DNA from: a bacterium
GTDB lineage: Bacteria > Patescibacteriota > Minisyncoccia > UBA6257 > WO2-44-18
Assembly: GCA_030646995.1 (NCBI GenBank)
Contig: JAUSKF010000004.1
Span: forward strand, 84,404-148,403
Direction: 5' to 3'
DNA: 64,000 bases
Both the position numbers and the translations under genes were made by a program. This document shows positions 1,825 to 47,592 of the stretch, in pieces. Below the pieces are notes generated by a model, which made no database searches, was not told the origin of the DNA, and saw only the letters and a list, made by a program, of their open reading frames with translations. Each line of letters starts with the position of its first letter. The first letter of the stretch is position 1.

Positions 1825-2394
1825 CTAAACCAAATTTGAGGGAGGGGCCAAATGCTCACCAAATTTATCGTGCGGTAAGTCTTTAAACAATCCACCCGAG
1901 CCACGGGAACGTTTTATTCCGCGGCCTAGTACTTTTAAGATTGCCTCTGCTCCGCCTGGCCATTCTTCAAACTTCACTCCCTTCTGCGCAAACATTTGCA
2001 TTGTTGCTTCACGAGCTTTTGCGTTGGAATAGGTGCCGGCAGTAACCACCCTCGTAATTCCCTTTTGCATTAATACCTTCGAACAGTCCACGCAGGGCGT
2101 GCCCACTATGTAAGCGGTTGCTCCGCGTAAATCTTCCCGCACGGTATTTAAAACTGCGTTCACCTCACCATGCAAAGTGCGCACGCAATGGTTATTCTCC
2201 AAAAGATGCCCCGCTTCGTCGCAAGTCTCCAATCCCGACACGGACCCATTATATCCCGTGCCGACTACGTGCTTATCTTTATTTACCAAAACACAGGCGG
2301 TGCGTAGCCGATCGCAAGAGCCGCGATTGGAAAGCCACCAAGCCTGCACCAAGAAAGTTTCGTCCCAATTGGGTTTATGGCTCAAAGAATCCAT
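1825..2394 (-). CDS. dCMP deaminase / ComEB family zinc deaminase
   Basis: SC.R, GTGYNG, HGEVNA, PCVDC. Confidence 0.9.
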   Translation of the reverse strand: MDSLSHKPNWDETFLVQAWWLSNRGSCDRLRTACVLVNKDKHVVGTGYNGSVSGLETCDEAGHLLENNHCVRTLHGEVNAVLNTVREDLRGATAYIVGTPCVDCSKVLMQKGITRVVTAGTYSNAKAREATMQMFAQKGVKFEEWPGGAEAILKVLGRGIKRSRGSGGLFKDLPHDKFGEHLAPPSNLV

Positions 2395-2457
2395 TACTTC
2401 CTATACTACCAAACCATTCACTCTTTTAAAACTTTTTGGCGCAGGGCAGCTGCCTCT

Positions 2458-2527
2458 AAGGAACATGCCGGAGACGATTTTGATTGGTTTGTTTGTTAAT
2501 ACAAACGAAAAATCGTCGAGGGAGAAG
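2458..2527 (+). repeat. Structured repeat family A, copy 1
   Basis: AGGAACATGCCGGAG-stem-GATTGG-hairpin-stem-CGAGGGAGAAG; related copies at 41181(+) and 57673-57732(-). Confidence 0.7.
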
Positions 2528-2551
2528 AAAAACAGCCCGCAGGAGACTGTG

Positions 2552-2814
2552 GGCCCCTATTTCCACATATTCCATCTAATTTGGAAGCTAAAAAATGAGG
2601 CAAGTTCGCGAAGTGAGCCACAGCTTTACAAGCGTAAAGCTAGGCGAACGAACAAAGAAATTGGCCATTTTTTAGCTTCCCGAAGGGCGGGTTAATTTTG
2701 AATAGCTTCTTTGTTACTCGGATTAGACATAGAGTCTATGTCTGCATCCTCGTGGTCGCGAATCTATTCAAAATTAACTCCGCCAAATTGATGCGATATG
2801 TGGAATTAGGGGCC
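2552..2814. repeat. Y-shaped palindromic element, family B copy 1
   Basis: Terminal IR GGCCCCTATTTCCACATAT/ATATGTGGAATTAGGGGCC with two long internal hairpins. Confidence 0.75.
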
Positions 2815-2857
2815 AATTCTGTTTCCGAGGAGGCAGTTGACCGATAAGCCAGAAAGT

Positions 2858-3289
2858 TTATTTCTCTATTACCTCGATGCCCATATTCTTAGCAGTACCG
2901 GCGATAATTTTCATTGCCGCCTCCACATCATAAGCATTCAAGTCAATCATTTTGCGCTCGGCAATCGCCCGCAAGTCAGCTTTGGTAACTTTACCAACTT
3001 TGGTTTTCAGCGGATCACCAGAGCCTTTTTCAATGCCGGCAGCTTTCTTCAACAAAGCGGAAGCCGGAGGAGTCTTCAATTTGAAATCAAAGCTACGATC
3101 TTCATAAATCGTAATTTCCGCCGGGACTACGTCGCCAATCATTTCCTTTGTGGCGTCGTTGAACTTCTTGCAGAAGTCCTGAATGTTTACGCCGTGCTGA
3201 CCTAAAGCCGGGCCGATCGGCGGCGCTGGGTTGGCCTTACCGGCCTCAATCTGTAACTTTAATACTGTTTTAACTGGTTTTCCTGCCAT
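2858..3289 (-). CDS. rplK: 50S ribosomal protein L11
   Basis: [17 protein letters not shown]. Confidence 0.99.
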
Positions 3290-3312
3290 AAATTAAGTAA
3301 AGAGATTATAGC

Positions 3313-3867
3313 TTATAACTTTTGAACCTGCAAGGAATCAAGCTCTACCACGGTGTCGCGTCCGAAAATTGCCACCAGCACCTTAACTTTGCCCTTTTCC
3401 TCATCAACCTCCGCCACCTTAGCGTCGTAGTCCTTGAAAGGACCATCGGTGATTTTGACAGACTCACCCACCTGCAACTCTACTTTGAACTTTACTTCCT
3501 CCTCTCCGCCGCTGATTCGCTTCAACAAAGATTCAATCTCGTCTTTAGAAAGAGGGGTCGGCTTGGTACTGTCCGGACCCACGAAACCGGTAACACGTGG
3601 CGTGTTGCGCACGACATACCAAGTGTCTTCGGTGAGAATCATTTCCACCAGAACGTAACCGGGATAAATTTTTTCCTCCACGGCGCGACGCTTGCCGTTC
3701 TTAATCTTAATCATCTTCTCTTTCGGAACGATAATGTTAAAAATCTTGTCTCCCATAGCCAAAGACTCCACGCGTTGCGTTAAGTAGCGCGCTACGGCAT
3801 CTTCGTAGCCCGAATAAGTGTGTACGGCAAACCACTCCCTTTCTTTTTTAGTTTCTACCTTATCCAT
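3313..3867 (-). CDS. nusG: Transcription factor NusG
   Basis: WFAVHTYSGYE, YPGYVLVEM, KOW domain. Confidence 0.99.
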   Translation of the reverse strand: MDKVETKKEREWFAVHTYSGYEDAVARYLTQRVESLAMGDKIFNIIVPKEKMIKIKNGKRRAVEEKIYPGYVLVEMILTEDTWYVVRNTPRVTGFVGPDSTKPTPLSKDEIESLLKRISGGEEEVKFKVELQVGESVKITDGPFKDYDAKVAEVDEEKGKVKVLVAIFGRDTVVELDSLQVQKL

Positions 3868-21392: not shown

Positions 21393-22406
21393 TTAGAACA
21401 AGTGGACAACGTCCCGAATAGTAACGGCAATTATCAGCAGGAGGAGAACAAGAAACCCGGCGGCATTAACAGATCTTTCCATCTCCGGACGCAACGGCGA
21501 GCCTTTAATTTTTTCAAGAATAATAAACAAGAATCTTCCTCCGTCCAGTGCCGGAAATGGAAAGATATTGAGAACCGCCAAATTTAAAGAAATCAAAGCA
21601 ATCAACTGAACAAGATAAATAAAGCCCATTGAGCCGGCCTGGTTGGCGATGCCAAAGATGCCGATTGGCCCCACGAAATCCACCAGCAACCGGCCTTGAG
21701 TAATCAGTCCCCAGAAAAGATTCGCAAAGGCCGCCAAAATTCCACCCACAATCATCAACGAAGCCTTCAATCCCTCCCAAAGACTAGCCAACAAAGAATG
21801 CCGCTCTATCCCCGCCTCCACTACCGCCACTCCCAACGCCCCCTCTCCGGAAACTCTTGGTGTAGCTTTAATTTGCAACTCTTCCCCTGCCCGACTAATG
21901 TTCAAAACGATTTCTTTCCCGCGATTCTGATTTATAAAAGAAACGAAATCGCTTCCATTTTGAAAATCCTTCATCTGATCATTAGCCAAAATTCCCACCG
22001 CTTCCGCCGGGCTACCCGGAAGAATTTCCGACACCACTACCACCCGCGGAGTGCCGACAGCGAAAATTAAAGACATCAACATCCAACCCAAGAAGAAATT
22101 CATTGCCACACCGGCGACGATTACCAAAGAGCGTTTCCAAATCGGCTGCACAAAAAAACTTCGCGCGCGCTTCTCCGCATTTATTTCTTCCCACTGATTC
22201 TCTCCATAAAGACGCACGAATCCGCCAAAAGGCAGAAGATTCAGGCTATAAATAGTCTCTCCGATTTTTTTTGAAAATAGACGCGGTGGAAATCCAAAAC
22301 CAAACTCCTCCACCAAAACACCGAACTTGCGAGCCGCCAAAAAATGCCCAAACTCGTGGATTAAGATCAGTAACGAAATACCGATAATTACAATTAAAAT
22401 GTCCAT
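21393..22406 (-). CDS. rseP: RIP metalloprotease RseP (M50 with PDZ)
   Basis: HEFGH, GFPP, PALDGG. Confidence 0.95.
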   Translation of the reverse strand: MDILIVIIGISLLILIHEFGHFLAARKFGVLVEEFGFGFPPRLFSKKIGETIYSLNLLPFGGFVRLYGENQWEEINAEKRARSFFVQPIWKRSLVIVAGVAMNFFLGWMLMSLIFAVGTPRVVVVSEILPGSPAEAVGILANDQMKDFQNGSDFVSFINQNRGKEIVLNISRAGEELQIKATPRVSGEGALGVAVVEAGIERHSLLASLWEGLKASLMIVGGILAAFANLFWGLITQGRLLVDFVGPIGIFGIANQAGSMGFIYLVQLIALISLNLAVLNIFPFPALDGGRFLFIILEKIKGSPLRPEMERSVNAAGFLVLLLLIIAVTIRDVVHLF

Positions 22407-22410
22407 TGGT

Positions 22411-22492
22411 TTAGTGTTTCGTATAAAGTATACGGTATTAAGTATTGGGGGAGAATTTATACTTAATACATCACACTGAATACTAAATACTA
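22411..22492. repeat. Heptad GTAT/ATAC periodic inverted repeat
   Basis: About 5 GTAT units at 7-nt period, then about 5 ATAC units; also at 47413 and 49852. Confidence 0.7.
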
Positions 22493-23044
22493 TTCGGAGA
22501 TCTCCTCAATCTTAGCAGAAAGAGAAACTTCAATCTCGCTGTTTGTTTTATCTACGGACTTTTGCGCCTTTTCGCGCGATTTGAATTTCTGATCTTCGGT
22601 AATTAATTTTTCCTTGAAAGCGGACTCAATCTTTTTATTTACATCATCACGCCCGGCGCGGACTTTTATCTTGGCCTCCTCGGTCAGACGCTTGGCCAAT
22701 TTAGTCAATTCTTCACGGCGTTCATCCGTCAGGGCCGGCAAATTAATCCGGATAAGATTACCGTCGGAATTAGCGGTTAATCCCATCCCGGAAGTTTCAA
22801 TAGCCTTAACCACCGCGCTCAAGGATTCTTTATCCCAGACGTTGATATCAATTTCACGGGGAGGAAGAATGCTGATTGCGCCAAGTTGCTGAACAGTAAA
22901 ATCCTGATCCATATACCGGACTTTCAGGTTATCCACCAGTTTTGGGCTGGGCCGGTTGGTACGGACTCCGGAAAGTTCATTTTTCAGATAATCCACGATC
23001 GCTCTTAAATTTTTCTCGAAATCTTTTATTAGTTGTTCTGTCAT
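22490..23044 (-). CDS. frr: Ribosome recycling factor
   Basis: RTNR, LPALTDERREEL. Confidence 0.97.
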   Translation of the reverse strand: MTEQLIKDFEKNLRAIVDYLKNELSGVRTNRPSPKLVDNLKVRYMDQDFTVQQLGAISILPPREIDINVWDKESLSAVVKAIETSGMGLTANSDGNLIRINLPALTDERREELTKLAKRLTEEAKIKVRAGRDDVNKKIESAFKEKLITEDQKFKSREKAQKSVDKTNSEIEVSLSAKIEEISE

Positions 23045-23102
23045 AAGAAAAAGAATAAATGAAAGGCTGAAAAATAAAAAGCCCCCATTCGGGGGTGGTA
23101 CT

Positions 23103-23528
23103 TCATGCGGCGGGGTAAGCTCGCATCAGCTTGTCGATGCCGCACCAGTTCTCCTGGTCCAGCAGGATGAAATCCAGGACCCACTTTCCCGTATCGCTGT
23201 TATAGCCCAAGAAAGGAACACGGCGCTTGCCTTGCGGATCATTCCAAACAGTACCGGGAAAAATCAGATAGAAATTCGTCCAGCTATGCGGAATGAAATT
23301 CTGACGCTCGAGCAACGCCTCAGCGTGTCTCTGGCCAAGATTGGCATCCAGCTCAAGAGCGCGGATGGCCATACGGTTACCATGGATCAGTCCTTCTTCA
23401 GGATGATGAAACCCGCAGATATCCATAACCACCAGATCATGCTCAACCTCGACATCCCTTTTCAATTTCCAGCCCCTCTCGCGCATGTCGCGGGCGAAGG
23501 GCTTGTCGGCAGTGATGACTGCGTACAT
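23103..23528 (-). CDS. Hypothetical protein
   Basis: Start reassigned to MYAVI (GAGGAGG SD); the longer ORF-track start crosses a terminator. Confidence 0.7.
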   Translation of the reverse strand: MYAVITADKPFARDMRERGWKLKRDVEVEHDLVVMDICGFHHPEEGLIHGNRMAIRALELDANLGQRHAEALLERQNFIPHSWTNFYLIFPGTVWNDPQGKRRVPFLGYNSDTGKWVLDFILLDQENWCGIDKLMRAYPAA

Positions 23529-23578
23529 GAACGCCTCCTCAAATGTGCCGTCGGCTACTATAACACAAACGCCTAGGA

Positions 23579-23928
23579 TAAAAAATACCCCCGCCAGCAT
23601 GCTGCTGGACGGGGGTTTGAGTTTGCGCCGCAATGGCAGCAACTTCGGACAGACGACCCGATCAACAATCGGGAGCCTTTTCCGGAAACTGCCTGCGGCA
23701 GTACATAAAAATTTATTAAAGAACCCCGCTCGGTTCCCGGCGACTTTGGGGAGATGTCGCTTTGGGGGAGGTGCTCGCCGGTCGCTTATCGCTCGTATGC
23801 CACTGCTGCCACCAGAGCAACAGCTCACGCCTTAGAGGCCGCGATCGCATATGAATTAACGAGCCAAGTACCGGCGTCTCGGGTTTTCGGGAGCCCGAGC
23901 GGGGCGGATATACTTTCTGATTTGCTGT
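23579..23928 (-). ncRNA. Candidate structured ncRNA 1 (about 350 nt)
   Basis: Promoter upstream, nested stems, terminator ACCCCCG...CGGGGG-TATTTTTT. Confidence 0.6.
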
Positions 23929-23933
23929 AAGCA

Positions 23934-23962
23934 ATTTTAGCAAGAAATCTTCTGCTAGTCAA
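23934..23962 (-). promoter_or_regulatory. Sigma70 promoter of candidate ncRNA 1
   Basis: TTGACT-17-TAAAAT with extended TG. Confidence 0.7.
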
Positions 23963-23970
23963 TGGCTCCG

Positions 23971-24051
23971 CTATTTGCAGACAATCGGCAAAAAGTAGAT
24001 CAAAACACCCGTAAAGATGGTGAGTAAGATTATTCCAAAAGCTTTGTCCAT
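23971..24051 (-). CDS. Possible 26-aa hydrophobic small protein
   Basis: MDKAFGIILLTIFTGVLIYFLPIVCK, 10 nt after the holB stop. Confidence 0.3.
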   Translation of the reverse strand: MDKAFGIILLTIFTGVLIYFLPIVCK

Positions 24052-24061
24052 TACTTTAATT

Positions 24062-24775
24062 TTATACCTCTAATAGCGCCGCTTCAAGCTGAAGCCGCTT
24101 ATTCAAATTAAATTCACTCATTAAAGCCCAGCGCCGCGATAAAGCCTTTAGTCCTTTCCAATTTTTTACCGGATCTTTTTGCAATTCCATCATCATCCCG
24201 CGCACGAAATCATCCACTAAGCGAGGCTCTTCTTCGGTGCGCTCAATAAGAGTTTTGAGAAATTCTTTTCTTTTCGCGGGCGCGGTTTTCATAAATATTC
24301 CCACTTCTTTTACTTCCGCCTCAACAACATTCTCCCCAGCCAAAAATATGCGCTGAAAACGCGACTGAACGGCGGGCGACAAAGCGCCTGGGTCTTTTAA
24401 AAGCAATACCAACAGGGCCCCGGCGGGCGGCTCCTCGGCGATCTTCAAAATTGCGTTCTGGGCGTACAAAGTCAGAGCGTGAGCGTTATCAATTACCAAT
24501 AATCGGCGAATGGAAACAGCGGGTCGTTGCCATAAAAATTCCGAGGCTAACCGAATTAAATCAATCCCGCCATCGGCGTGAGCATCATAAAAAATACTGT
24601 CATTTAAAACCCGAGTCGGCGCCTCCCAGTTCCCTGCTTCTAAAAAATTAGCCAAGCATTTTGCCGCTACTAGTTTTTCTTTCTCTGTGCCGTGTCCGAA
24701 AAAAATATAACTGTGCGAAAGACGCTCATCTTTTATCAAGTCGGAAAAAAGTTTTTTTAAATCCCCTGCTTTCAC
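24062..24775 (-). CDS. holB: DNA polymerase III delta-prime-like clamp loader subunit
   Basis: HSYIFFG, IDNAH, QNAILKIAEEPP, SRF. Confidence 0.8.
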   Translation of the reverse strand: MKAGDLKKLFSDLIKDERLSHSYIFFGHGTEKEKLVAAKCLANFLEAGNWEAPTRVLNDSIFYDAHADGGIDLIRLASEFLWQRPAVSIRRLLVIDNAHALTLYAQNAILKIAEEPPAGALLVLLLKDPGALSPAVQSRFQRIFLAGENVVEAEVKEVGIFMKTAPAKRKEFLKTLIERTEEEPRLVDDFVRGMMMELQKDPVKNWKGLKALSRRWALMSEFNLNKRLQLEAALLEV

Positions 24776-24789
24776 TAACTAAGTATAAC

Positions 24790-25797
24790 CTAGCGCTTGT
24801 TCAAAAGCGTTCGCTTGTAGACTTCCAGATGATTCAGAATCAAGCCGGTACCCTTGGCAACGCAATAAAGCGGATCTTCAGCGACGTAGGTCTGCACGCC
24901 GGTCATCCGCCGGAAAAATTCATCAATATAACGCAGATGCGCGCCGCCGCCGGAAAGAATAATTCCCTTTTCCATAATATCCGCTACCAATTCCGGAGGA
25001 GTGCTATTGAAAACGCTTTGCACGGAAGCGGCAATGTCGAGCAAGTGCGGATTAAGCGCTTCAGCAATTTCGTTGGAGGTGATTACTAAATCTCTAGGCA
25101 AGCCCGAAACTAAATCCCGGCCACGAAGACGGTATTCCAATTTTTCTTTAGTCGGCAAAGCGGAACCGATTTCAATCTTCACATTTTCCGCGCTCTGCTC
25201 TCCCAAAAATAGAGAGTACTTTTTCTTAATATAATCCATAATCGCCTGATCGAATTTATTTCCGGCAACCCGCAAGCTGGCCCAGGAAACAATTCCGCCC
25301 AAAGCAACCACGGCCACCTCGGAAGTGCCGCCGCCGATGTTGATAATCATATTGCCGGAATAGTTGTTAATCGGAACGCCGGCACCCAGCGCGGCCAAAA
25401 TGGGTTCTTTTACGATATAAGCCTCTTTGGCGCCCGCTTCTTTGGCGGCGTTTATTACTGCGCGTTTTTCGGTTGGAGAAATACCGGCAGGAACGGAAAT
25501 TACCACCTCGGGCTTAAAGAAATTAAATGAGCCGGAGGCCTTAGCGATGAAATACTTCATCATCGCTTTGGTGATGTAGTAGTCGGCAATCACGCCTTCC
25601 TTGAGCGGACGATACGCCACAATGTTGTCGGGTGTACGGCCGATCATATCTTTGGCTTCGCGGCCAACAGCAAGAACGGTGTTGTCGGGTACACTCAAGG
25701 CAACGATGGTTGGTTCGTTGATAATAAAACCCCGGCCCGGCACGAAAACAATCGTGTTGGCGGTTCCTAAGTCTATTCCGATTTTTCGTGTAAACAT
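24790..25797 (-). CDS. mreB: Second MreB/Mbl paralog
   Basis: GIDLGTAN, IGGGTSE, SGGGAHL. Confidence 0.93.
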   Translation of the reverse strand: MFTRKIGIDLGTANTIVFVPGRGFIINEPTIVALSVPDNTVLAVGREAKDMIGRTPDNIVAYRPLKEGVIADYYITKAMMKYFIAKASGSFNFFKPEVVISVPAGISPTEKRAVINAAKEAGAKEAYIVKEPILAALGAGVPINNYSGNMIINIGGGTSEVAVVALGGIVSWASLRVAGNKFDQAIMDYIKKKYSLFLGEQSAENVKIEIGSALPTKEKLEYRLRGRDLVSGLPRDLVITSNEIAEALNPHLLDIAASVQSVFNSTPPELVADIMEKGIILSGGGAHLRYIDEFFRRMTGVQTYVAEDPLYCVAKGTGLILNHLEVYKRTLLNKR

Positions 25798-47521: not shown

Positions 47522-47592
47522 TCGGGGCGCCGGGAATCGAACCCGGCCTATACGCACCCCATGCGTACGTACTGCCGATATACTACGCCCCG
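47522..47592 (-). tRNA. tRNA-Pro(GGG), CCA not encoded
   Basis: CGGGGCG acceptor, TACGC-ATGGGGT-GCGTA anticodon arm, GTTCGATTC T-loop. Confidence 0.95.

Follow-up and report, generated by a model that had tools for sequence, protein, structure and literature searches.

In a 64,000-nt window of the genome (751 kb, 6 contigs, 97.8% complete) of an ultra-small groundwater bacterium of the CPR (Patescibacteria), a stretch on the minus strand running from about 23927 to 23580 bears sequence hallmarks that partly support its reading as a separate transcription unit of about 350 nt. We propose, with a probability of roughly 0.4, that this unit is an independent, strain-specific non-coding RNA (ncRNA); its predicted role is one in trans, and not that of a switch controlling the downstream gene. 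The unit is an orphan candidate that belongs to no known family, its function is a prediction, and its kind, the lineage-specific ncRNA genes of bacteria, is already known. The order on the minus strand is murA, mreB, holB, a gene for a 26-aa peptide, the RNA unit, a gene for a 141-aa protein, a terminator-like hairpin, frr and rseP, and the features on which the argument draws are collected in Table 1.

Table 1. Features of the RNA unit and its neighbours, in the coordinates of the window.
Feature	Position	Strand	Description
holB (DNA polymerase III delta')		-	PF13177
26-aa hydrophobic peptide gene	24051-23971	-	directly 3' of holB
Sigma-70-type promoter	23962-23934	-	TTGACT 23962-23957, 17-nt spacer, TG 23942-23941, TAAAAT 23939-23934
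A-rich 5' tail	23927-23906	-	predicted mostly single-stranded from unpaired probabilities
5' branched domain, ~185 nt	23905-23723	-	11-bp and 5-bp closing helices
Closing stem CCCCGCTCGG/CCGAGCGGGG	23904-23895 with 23733-23724	-	perfect 10-mer, extendable to 11 bp
Inner stem CGCCGGT/ACCGGCG	23876-23870 with 23782-23776	-	
Inner stem GCTCGT/ACGAGC	23864-23859 with 23796-23791	-	
C-rich motif 1 CUCCCCCAAAG	23770-23760	-	junction, predicted unpaired; within CACCUCCCCC, which contains CCUCC
C-rich motif 2 CUCCCCAAAG	23753-23744	-	loop of the GCGAC/GUCGC hairpin, predicted unpaired
AU-rich linker joining the 5' and 3' domains	23722-23700	-	
3' domain	23699-23627	-	irregular rod-like hairpin, ~75-85 nt
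Intrinsic terminator	23616-23580	-	13 bp in two stacked helices, 3-nt loop, A, then U6 23585-23580
Candidate extended -10 TGTTATAGT of the 141-aa gene	23565-23557	-	between terminator and Shine-Dalgarno (SD) sequence; read from the sequence
SD GAGGAGG of the 141-aa gene	23540-23534	-	5 nt, then ATG 23528
141-aa gene	23528-23103	-	ATG 23528, stop at 23103
Terminator-like hairpin and T-run	23095-23082	-	3' of the 141-aa gene; closes the island on its right side, after which frr (ATG 23044) follows
frr	23044-22490	-	PF01765

The promoter TTGACT-17-TAAAAT, with which the initial annotation had opened the unit, is indeed found there, on the minus strand. With its TG, it reaches a score of 10 of 12 and ranks first among the four promoter-like sites in 22400-25000. 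Sites of such quality number 49 in the genome (1.5 Mb, both strands), as against 5 to 18 in each of five composition-preserving block shuffles, which corresponds to an approximately fourfold enrichment and to roughly one site per 30 kb of strand. Since such sites are both rare and enriched over shuffles, it is unlikely that one was placed by chance 30 nt ahead of the first helix. The start of the RNA is predicted near 23927, and transcription from there would mostly end at about 23580, behind a terminator whose two stems pair 23616-23610 with 23593-23587 and 23608-23603 with 23599-23594.

Between promoter and terminator, the multibranched domain of about 180 nt that the initial annotation had described, together with its three named stems, appears in the minimum free energy (MFE) fold with pairing probabilities near 1, as the main helices of the unit do generally; the AU-rich linker, the 3' hairpin domain and the terminator that were said to follow could all be located as well. 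Two elements lie inside the closing helices of the 5' domain, a small GCGAC/GUCGC hairpin and a long inner arm composed of helices of 7, 4, 6 and 4 bp. The whole unit folds at -151.9 kcal/mol (z -5.28), and none of 100 dinucleotide shuffles was as good. Taken separately, the 5' domain (z -3.29) and the 3' domain (z -4.97) were likewise matched by none of 200 dinucleotide shuffles each, whereas a control of equal length within the neighbouring gene gave z -0.04, with 43 of 100 shuffles as good. The plus strand of the unit is also stable (z -3.77), and the numbers of G-U pairs (10 on the minus and 13 on the plus strand) do not discriminate between the strands. Because the plus strand folds well too, we assigned the strand by the promoter and the U-tract and not by the fold. 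The structure is the one predicted for a single sequence, and a single-sequence z-score of this kind can also stem from a decayed palindromic or mobile element.

An open reading frame crosses the region, which the initial annotation had dismissed as a spurious extension of the downstream gene. In phase with the 141-aa gene, 101 codons free of stops precede ATG 23528, and it could be that ribosomes read this frame, as a 241-aa ORF or as a leader peptide. An in-phase open stretch of this length was reached in only 1.8% of 3000 dinucleotide shuffles, which speaks for translation; the sole suggestion that we offer for it is that the predicted GC-rich helices are poor in stop codons. However, in a codon log-odds model trained on 179 long ORFs of the host genome, the extension scored -0.104 per codon, as compared with 0.19 ± 0.08 for real genes (first percentile -0.02) and 0.173 for the 141-aa gene. 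Stop-free wrong-frame controls averaged -0.02, and 84% of them scored at least as high as the extension. Neither did the extension resemble the N-termini of 151 proteins of the family (best E 1.2), nor does it contain a start codon backed by an SD sequence: GTG 23828 is preceded, at a distance of 2 nt, by AAGG only, and ATG 23600 falls within the loop of the terminator. We consider it very unlikely that this frame is translated, and the data support the conclusion that the 241-aa frame is spurious and the region non-coding.

The start at 23528, to which the initial annotation had assigned an SD sequence of its own, is supported by that strong GAGGAGG, by the existence of short family members and by the confident predicted fold of the 141-aa form (pLDDT 94.5). 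The family of this protein comprises 2499 representatives at E up to 0.001, distributed over CPR phyla and Dehalococcoidia/SAR202, and in some members the domain occurs in tandem, in 2 to 4 copies. The family includes both short and long forms: 30 of the 152 proteins examined have at most 150 aa, and many have N-terminal extensions. Searches of Pfam, NCBIfam, PADLOC and PHROG with the 141-aa protein gave zero matches. Structural comparison with VIA-align placed it next to a domain of Bdellovibrio Bd2740 (Z 6.0) and an invasin-family adhesin (Z 5.9), after which came many C-type lectin-like domains (CTLDs) and DGR variable proteins with Z of 4 to 5; by Foldseek, the TM values were 0.40-0.45 at E of at least 0.07. 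Judged by its predicted fold, the protein looks like a C-type-lectin-like binding module and not like an enzyme or transporter. Two other candidates were disregarded, namely the designed Pizza propellers, for which a PDB sequence search gave only summed-repeat matches and 0 stretches passing, and JetA, which matched one relative only, and weakly (E 0.0048).

We looked for relatives of the RNA at several levels. An Rfam scan, which had been proposed along with the initial annotation, was run and placed the RNA unit in no Rfam family: at gathering scores, Rfam 15 found a single match in the whole window, a tRNA at 47522-47592. At E up to 10, the segment 23400-24150 gave eight matches that scored 9.9 to 17.8 bits, well short of the gathering scores in every case, and that fell mostly on the terminator. 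The unit occurs once in its genome, its sole match there being itself, and BLAST in 60 relatives returned merely three chance matches of 21-22 nt. Two covariance models were then applied, R1 for the 5' domain (built from the single sequence) and R3 for the 3' domain. R1 matched none of 100 relatives, none of 150 genomes sampled phylum-wide and nothing in 39 loci, and R3 gave, in 100 relatives, one 35-nt partial match (E 0.035) that we took as chance. The RNA was unmatched in all four genomes of the same genus. A metagenome pattern scan for the double C-rich motif yielded eight loci, none of them alike (R1 gave them at most 12 bits, whereas the RNA itself scores 249.9). We rejected a dispersed structured repeat or MITE-like element, as there is one genome copy and R1 finds one place in the genome and none in 100 relatives. 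The sequence is contained in two groundwater DNA runs, one of them possibly the source sample, with zero variants; contigs of both runs were compared over 22400-25000, and in run X2 short pieces spanning 23046-23538 and 23567-23740 showed 0 differences, and 23792-23965 was uncovered.

This distribution bears on whether the unit might be a divergent housekeeping RNA, that is, the SRP RNA or the 6S RNA of the host. The models RF00169 and RF01854 (small and large bacterial SRP RNA) and RF00013 (6S RNA) indeed have zero matches in the 97.8%-complete genome, which leaves room for such a reading. However, a housekeeping RNA would be expected to be conserved at the level of the genus, whereas this one is found in none of the four same-genus genomes and in no other relative searched, and the nearest relative lacks it in the corresponding slot. 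It has not even a weak match to the SRP and 6S families at E up to 10, and the RNase P RNA (contig 3) and the tmRNA (contig 2) were found elsewhere in the genome by their Rfam models. Because the unit is not conserved even within the genus, we take it to be neither SRP nor 6S RNA and regard the opposite as extremely improbable; the SRP RNA of the host may be divergent or unassembled.

The initial annotation had left the choice between an independent ncRNA and an attenuating leader of the downstream gene. The hallmarks of a separate unit and its non-coding nature agree with the former, while the attenuator was weakened, there being no competing pairing and no Rfam riboswitch or leader. As a cis-acting leader or attenuator, the structure would be the 5' untranslated region of a transcript driven by the promoter at 23962 through the 141-aa gene and frr, and the terminator would be read through in response to a ligand, a protein or temperature. 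The layout resembles that of riboswitch and attenuator leaders, with a promoter, a structured domain closed by a long helix, a terminator, an SD sequence and a gene all on one strand and only 51 nt from the U-tract to the ATG. In addition, a -35 element for a separate promoter of the gene was not detected, frr also lacks room for a good promoter, so that read-through may matter, and in the relative G002 a different promoter-RNA-terminator unit directly precedes frr.

Such leaders, however, work by alternative pairing of terminator and antiterminator, of which we found no sign. When the transcript was cut after the 5' half of the terminator, that half was left unpaired in the MFE structure, and forcing it to be unpaired gave -126.9 kcal/mol both ways. 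As the 5' half of the terminator has no partner and a ban on its pairing costs zero energy, an antiterminator of the usual type is absent. An extra hairpin domain stands between the branched domain and the terminator, unlike in the usual expression platforms. There is no conserved aptamer, and raising the E limit to 10 brought no match to an Rfam riboswitch or leader. Upstream of the relatives of the 141-aa protein, no similar RNA occurs in 34 loci of CPR bacteria and Dehalococcoidia (best R1 E-value 2.4), and the gene product looks like a binding module, unlike the products of the genes that riboswitches usually control. Finally, the stretch that follows the terminator contains a candidate extended -10 (TGTTATAGT); it comes without a good -35, and our promoter scan requires a -35, so that the element is not among the sites of the scan. 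We therefore favour an independent ncRNA over a leader, which appears unlikely, and over a structured spacer, which is considered below, on account of the missing antiterminator and of this candidate -10 of the gene's own. The 141-aa gene would then be served either by this weak extended -10 or by read-through.

In an alignment with the nearest relative, whose frr is 87% identical, homology is lost behind the peptide gene, at about 23964, and comes back where frr begins, at about 23035, and the relative has about 60 nt in place of 926 nt in the same slot between holB, the peptide gene and frr. Given this break in homology on both sides, the RNA and the 141-aa gene form one accessory island of 926 bp that consists of the promoter, the RNA, its terminator, the 141-aa gene and a second terminator. 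Across 23100-23900 the GC content ranges from 0.51 to 0.565, above the genome value of 0.46, and phage and plasmid collections contained no match to the island. We also observed an imperfect 27-nt direct repeat (19/27) at 23007-23033 and 23933-23959, of which the former lies within the opening codons of frr and the latter within the spacer of the RNA promoter; the spacing of the copies, 926 nt, equals the length of the island. The repeat may be a recombination scar or may have arisen by chance.

An RNA, a terminator and a small protein gene that share an accessory island recall the type III toxin-antitoxin loci, and ToxIN-type loci have the order promoter, RNA, terminator, small protein gene. 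The RNA here would accordingly be an antitoxin against the protein encoded behind the terminator. Unlike ToxIN, however, the unit has no repeat array, as Tandem Repeats Finder (minimum score 30) returned 0 rows over 23000-24100, and the protein is not ToxN-like in the libraries searched, which included Pfam, NCBIfam, PADLOC and PHROG. Its predicted fold resembles C-type lectin domains rather than an endoribonuclease, and its relatives stand without such an RNA and often carry N-terminal extensions. We therefore give this pairing hardly any credence.

The slot in which the island sits varies between related genomes. holB adjoins frr in 17 of the 19 related loci, and in the 13 loci where peptide gene and frr have the same direction and nothing else lies between them, the gap measures 19 to 300 nt. 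Ten gaps were folded, from nine related loci and from G001, and each had its own long hairpin or branched GC-rich element, some with U-run ends. Strong promoters precede the slot elements in G001, G002 and G004. G002 and G004 have in common a unit of about 130 nt that immediately precedes frr and consists of a promoter, a branched RNA and a terminator (L050 2090-2257, minus strand; L051 1183-1362, plus strand). In the first hairpin of this unit, one double and two one-sided pair changes distinguish the two genomes. A model of this RNA (R2) found just these two of 40 relatives. Kinship with the RNA unit studied here was rejected, R2 having no match in the genome of the window. Beside the unit of this type in L050 lies an ORF of 367 aa on the opposite strand (2359-3462, plus strand), with a KxDG motif that we take to be ligase-like.

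These observations lend some weight to a different explanation, in which the stretch has no RNA function and is a fast-evolving structured spacer, for example an elaborate terminator or insulator of the holB-peptide operon or a decayed mobile or palindromic remnant, with a promoter that is fortuitous or inherited. In the nine folded loci and in L049 to L052, the same slot is filled by unrelated elements, long hairpins or branched GC-rich structures of which some have U-runs at their ends, and the orphan status of the RNA, which R1 found in none of the 100 relatives or the 150 sampled genomes, fits such a spacer. Against it, the single copy means that there is no repeat family, the promoter is of a quality both rare and enriched over chance and stands close ahead of the first helix, and the terminator is canonical and correctly oriented. 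Some 440 nt of functionless DNA would also be costly in a genome of 751 kb. A spacer is hence a doubtful reading, if one to be taken seriously, and the slot as such may either gather lineage-specific RNA genes or hold structured filler that simply turns over fast.

If the unit is indeed an independent ncRNA, its two C-rich motifs are the most apparent candidates for contact with other RNAs. Both motifs, CUCCCCCAAAG in a junction and CUCCCCAAAG in a hairpin loop, have unpaired probabilities of about 0.9 to 1. The shared motif CUCCCC(C)AAAG has two matches in the genome, both in the RNA unit (a local duplication), and the segment CACCUCCCCC around the first includes the anti-SD core CCUCC. In the proposed mechanism, the RNA would act through these two exposed motifs, whose partners would be G-rich ribosome-binding sites; sites of this kind occur rarely in the genome, and a strong one is found on the gene next door. 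This is the weakest step of our proposal. GGAG or GAGG precedes 13% of 253 roughly defined starts, as against 9% of random positions, and GAGGAGG, the site that the 141-aa gene carries, precedes 2.4%; the use of SD sequences in this genome appears low. The predicted duplex between the C-rich segment and the ribosome-binding site of the 141-aa gene reaches -17.5 kcal/mol and ranks among the best 2% of 253 sites, a value that 25% of shuffled segments equal, so that this duplex lends the idea no specific support. Of the complements sought across the genome, none lay at a start codon, and the one of 15/16 is antisense to an ORF. Beside dprA, where we looked for an anti-SD RNA in this genome, a long ORF follows directly. 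A short motif did not locate the 3' end of the 16S rRNA in the assembly, and the anti-SD sequence of the host is therefore assumed. The predicted exposure of the two motifs suggests, at low confidence, that they could pair with SD sites.

A wider conjecture can be attached to this. The RNA may be one of a fast-evolving class of Patescibacteria riboregulators with anti-SD-like motifs that silence the few genes with strong ribosome-binding sites, here the lectin-like gene acquired together with it, and the slot would be a nursery of RNA genes that differ from lineage to lineage. We offer it as a speculation that is quite improbable in this full form.

C-rich motifs that pair with G-rich ribosome-binding regions are characteristic of RsaE and RoxS. 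The unit described here resembles these RNAs in having its own promoter, an intrinsic terminator and two C-rich motifs in predicted unpaired regions. RsaE/RoxS are described as base-pairing sRNAs of Firmicutes with C-rich motifs (PMC6158497, PMC5419742), and RsaE as conserved across Firmicutes (PMC6158497). In contrast, our RNA is about three times longer, contains two large structured domains and is not conserved even within its genus, and the Rfam family RsaE is absent among the matches listed at E up to 10 for the unit.

Large orphan structured ncRNAs of bacteria, such as OLE, raiA and ROOL/GOLLD, are defined by wide conservation with covariation. Like them, the RNA unit spans several hundred nucleotides, is multi-domain and non-coding and was found by sequence analysis; unlike them, it is known from one genome, and it has no match to those Rfam families. 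To our knowledge, the genomes of ultra-small CPR bacteria contain very little non-coding DNA, hardly any regulatory RNAs have been described from them, and a literature search for regulatory RNAs of CPR bacteria gave no relevant result. If our proposal holds, an RNA gene of 350 nt that has its own promoter and moves with an accessory gene would imply that CPR bacteria acquire and lose genes for RNAs no less readily than genes for proteins. Should the C-rich motifs in fact target SD sites, the RNA would offer a way to control the minority of genes that use this signal.

Two further observations concern the genes on either side of the island. The frr start at 23044 has no SD sequence; about 37 nt (23045-23081) separate frr from the preceding terminator-like hairpin, and a -10-like TATTCT ends 7 nt upstream of the ATG, so that frr may be leaderless or reliant on read-through. 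At the other side, the 26-aa peptide gene has an SD-like AGAGGT and was detected by tblastn in 16 of the 19 related loci, and the peptide has no PHROG match. It probably encodes a conserved small membrane protein that annotation has overlooked.
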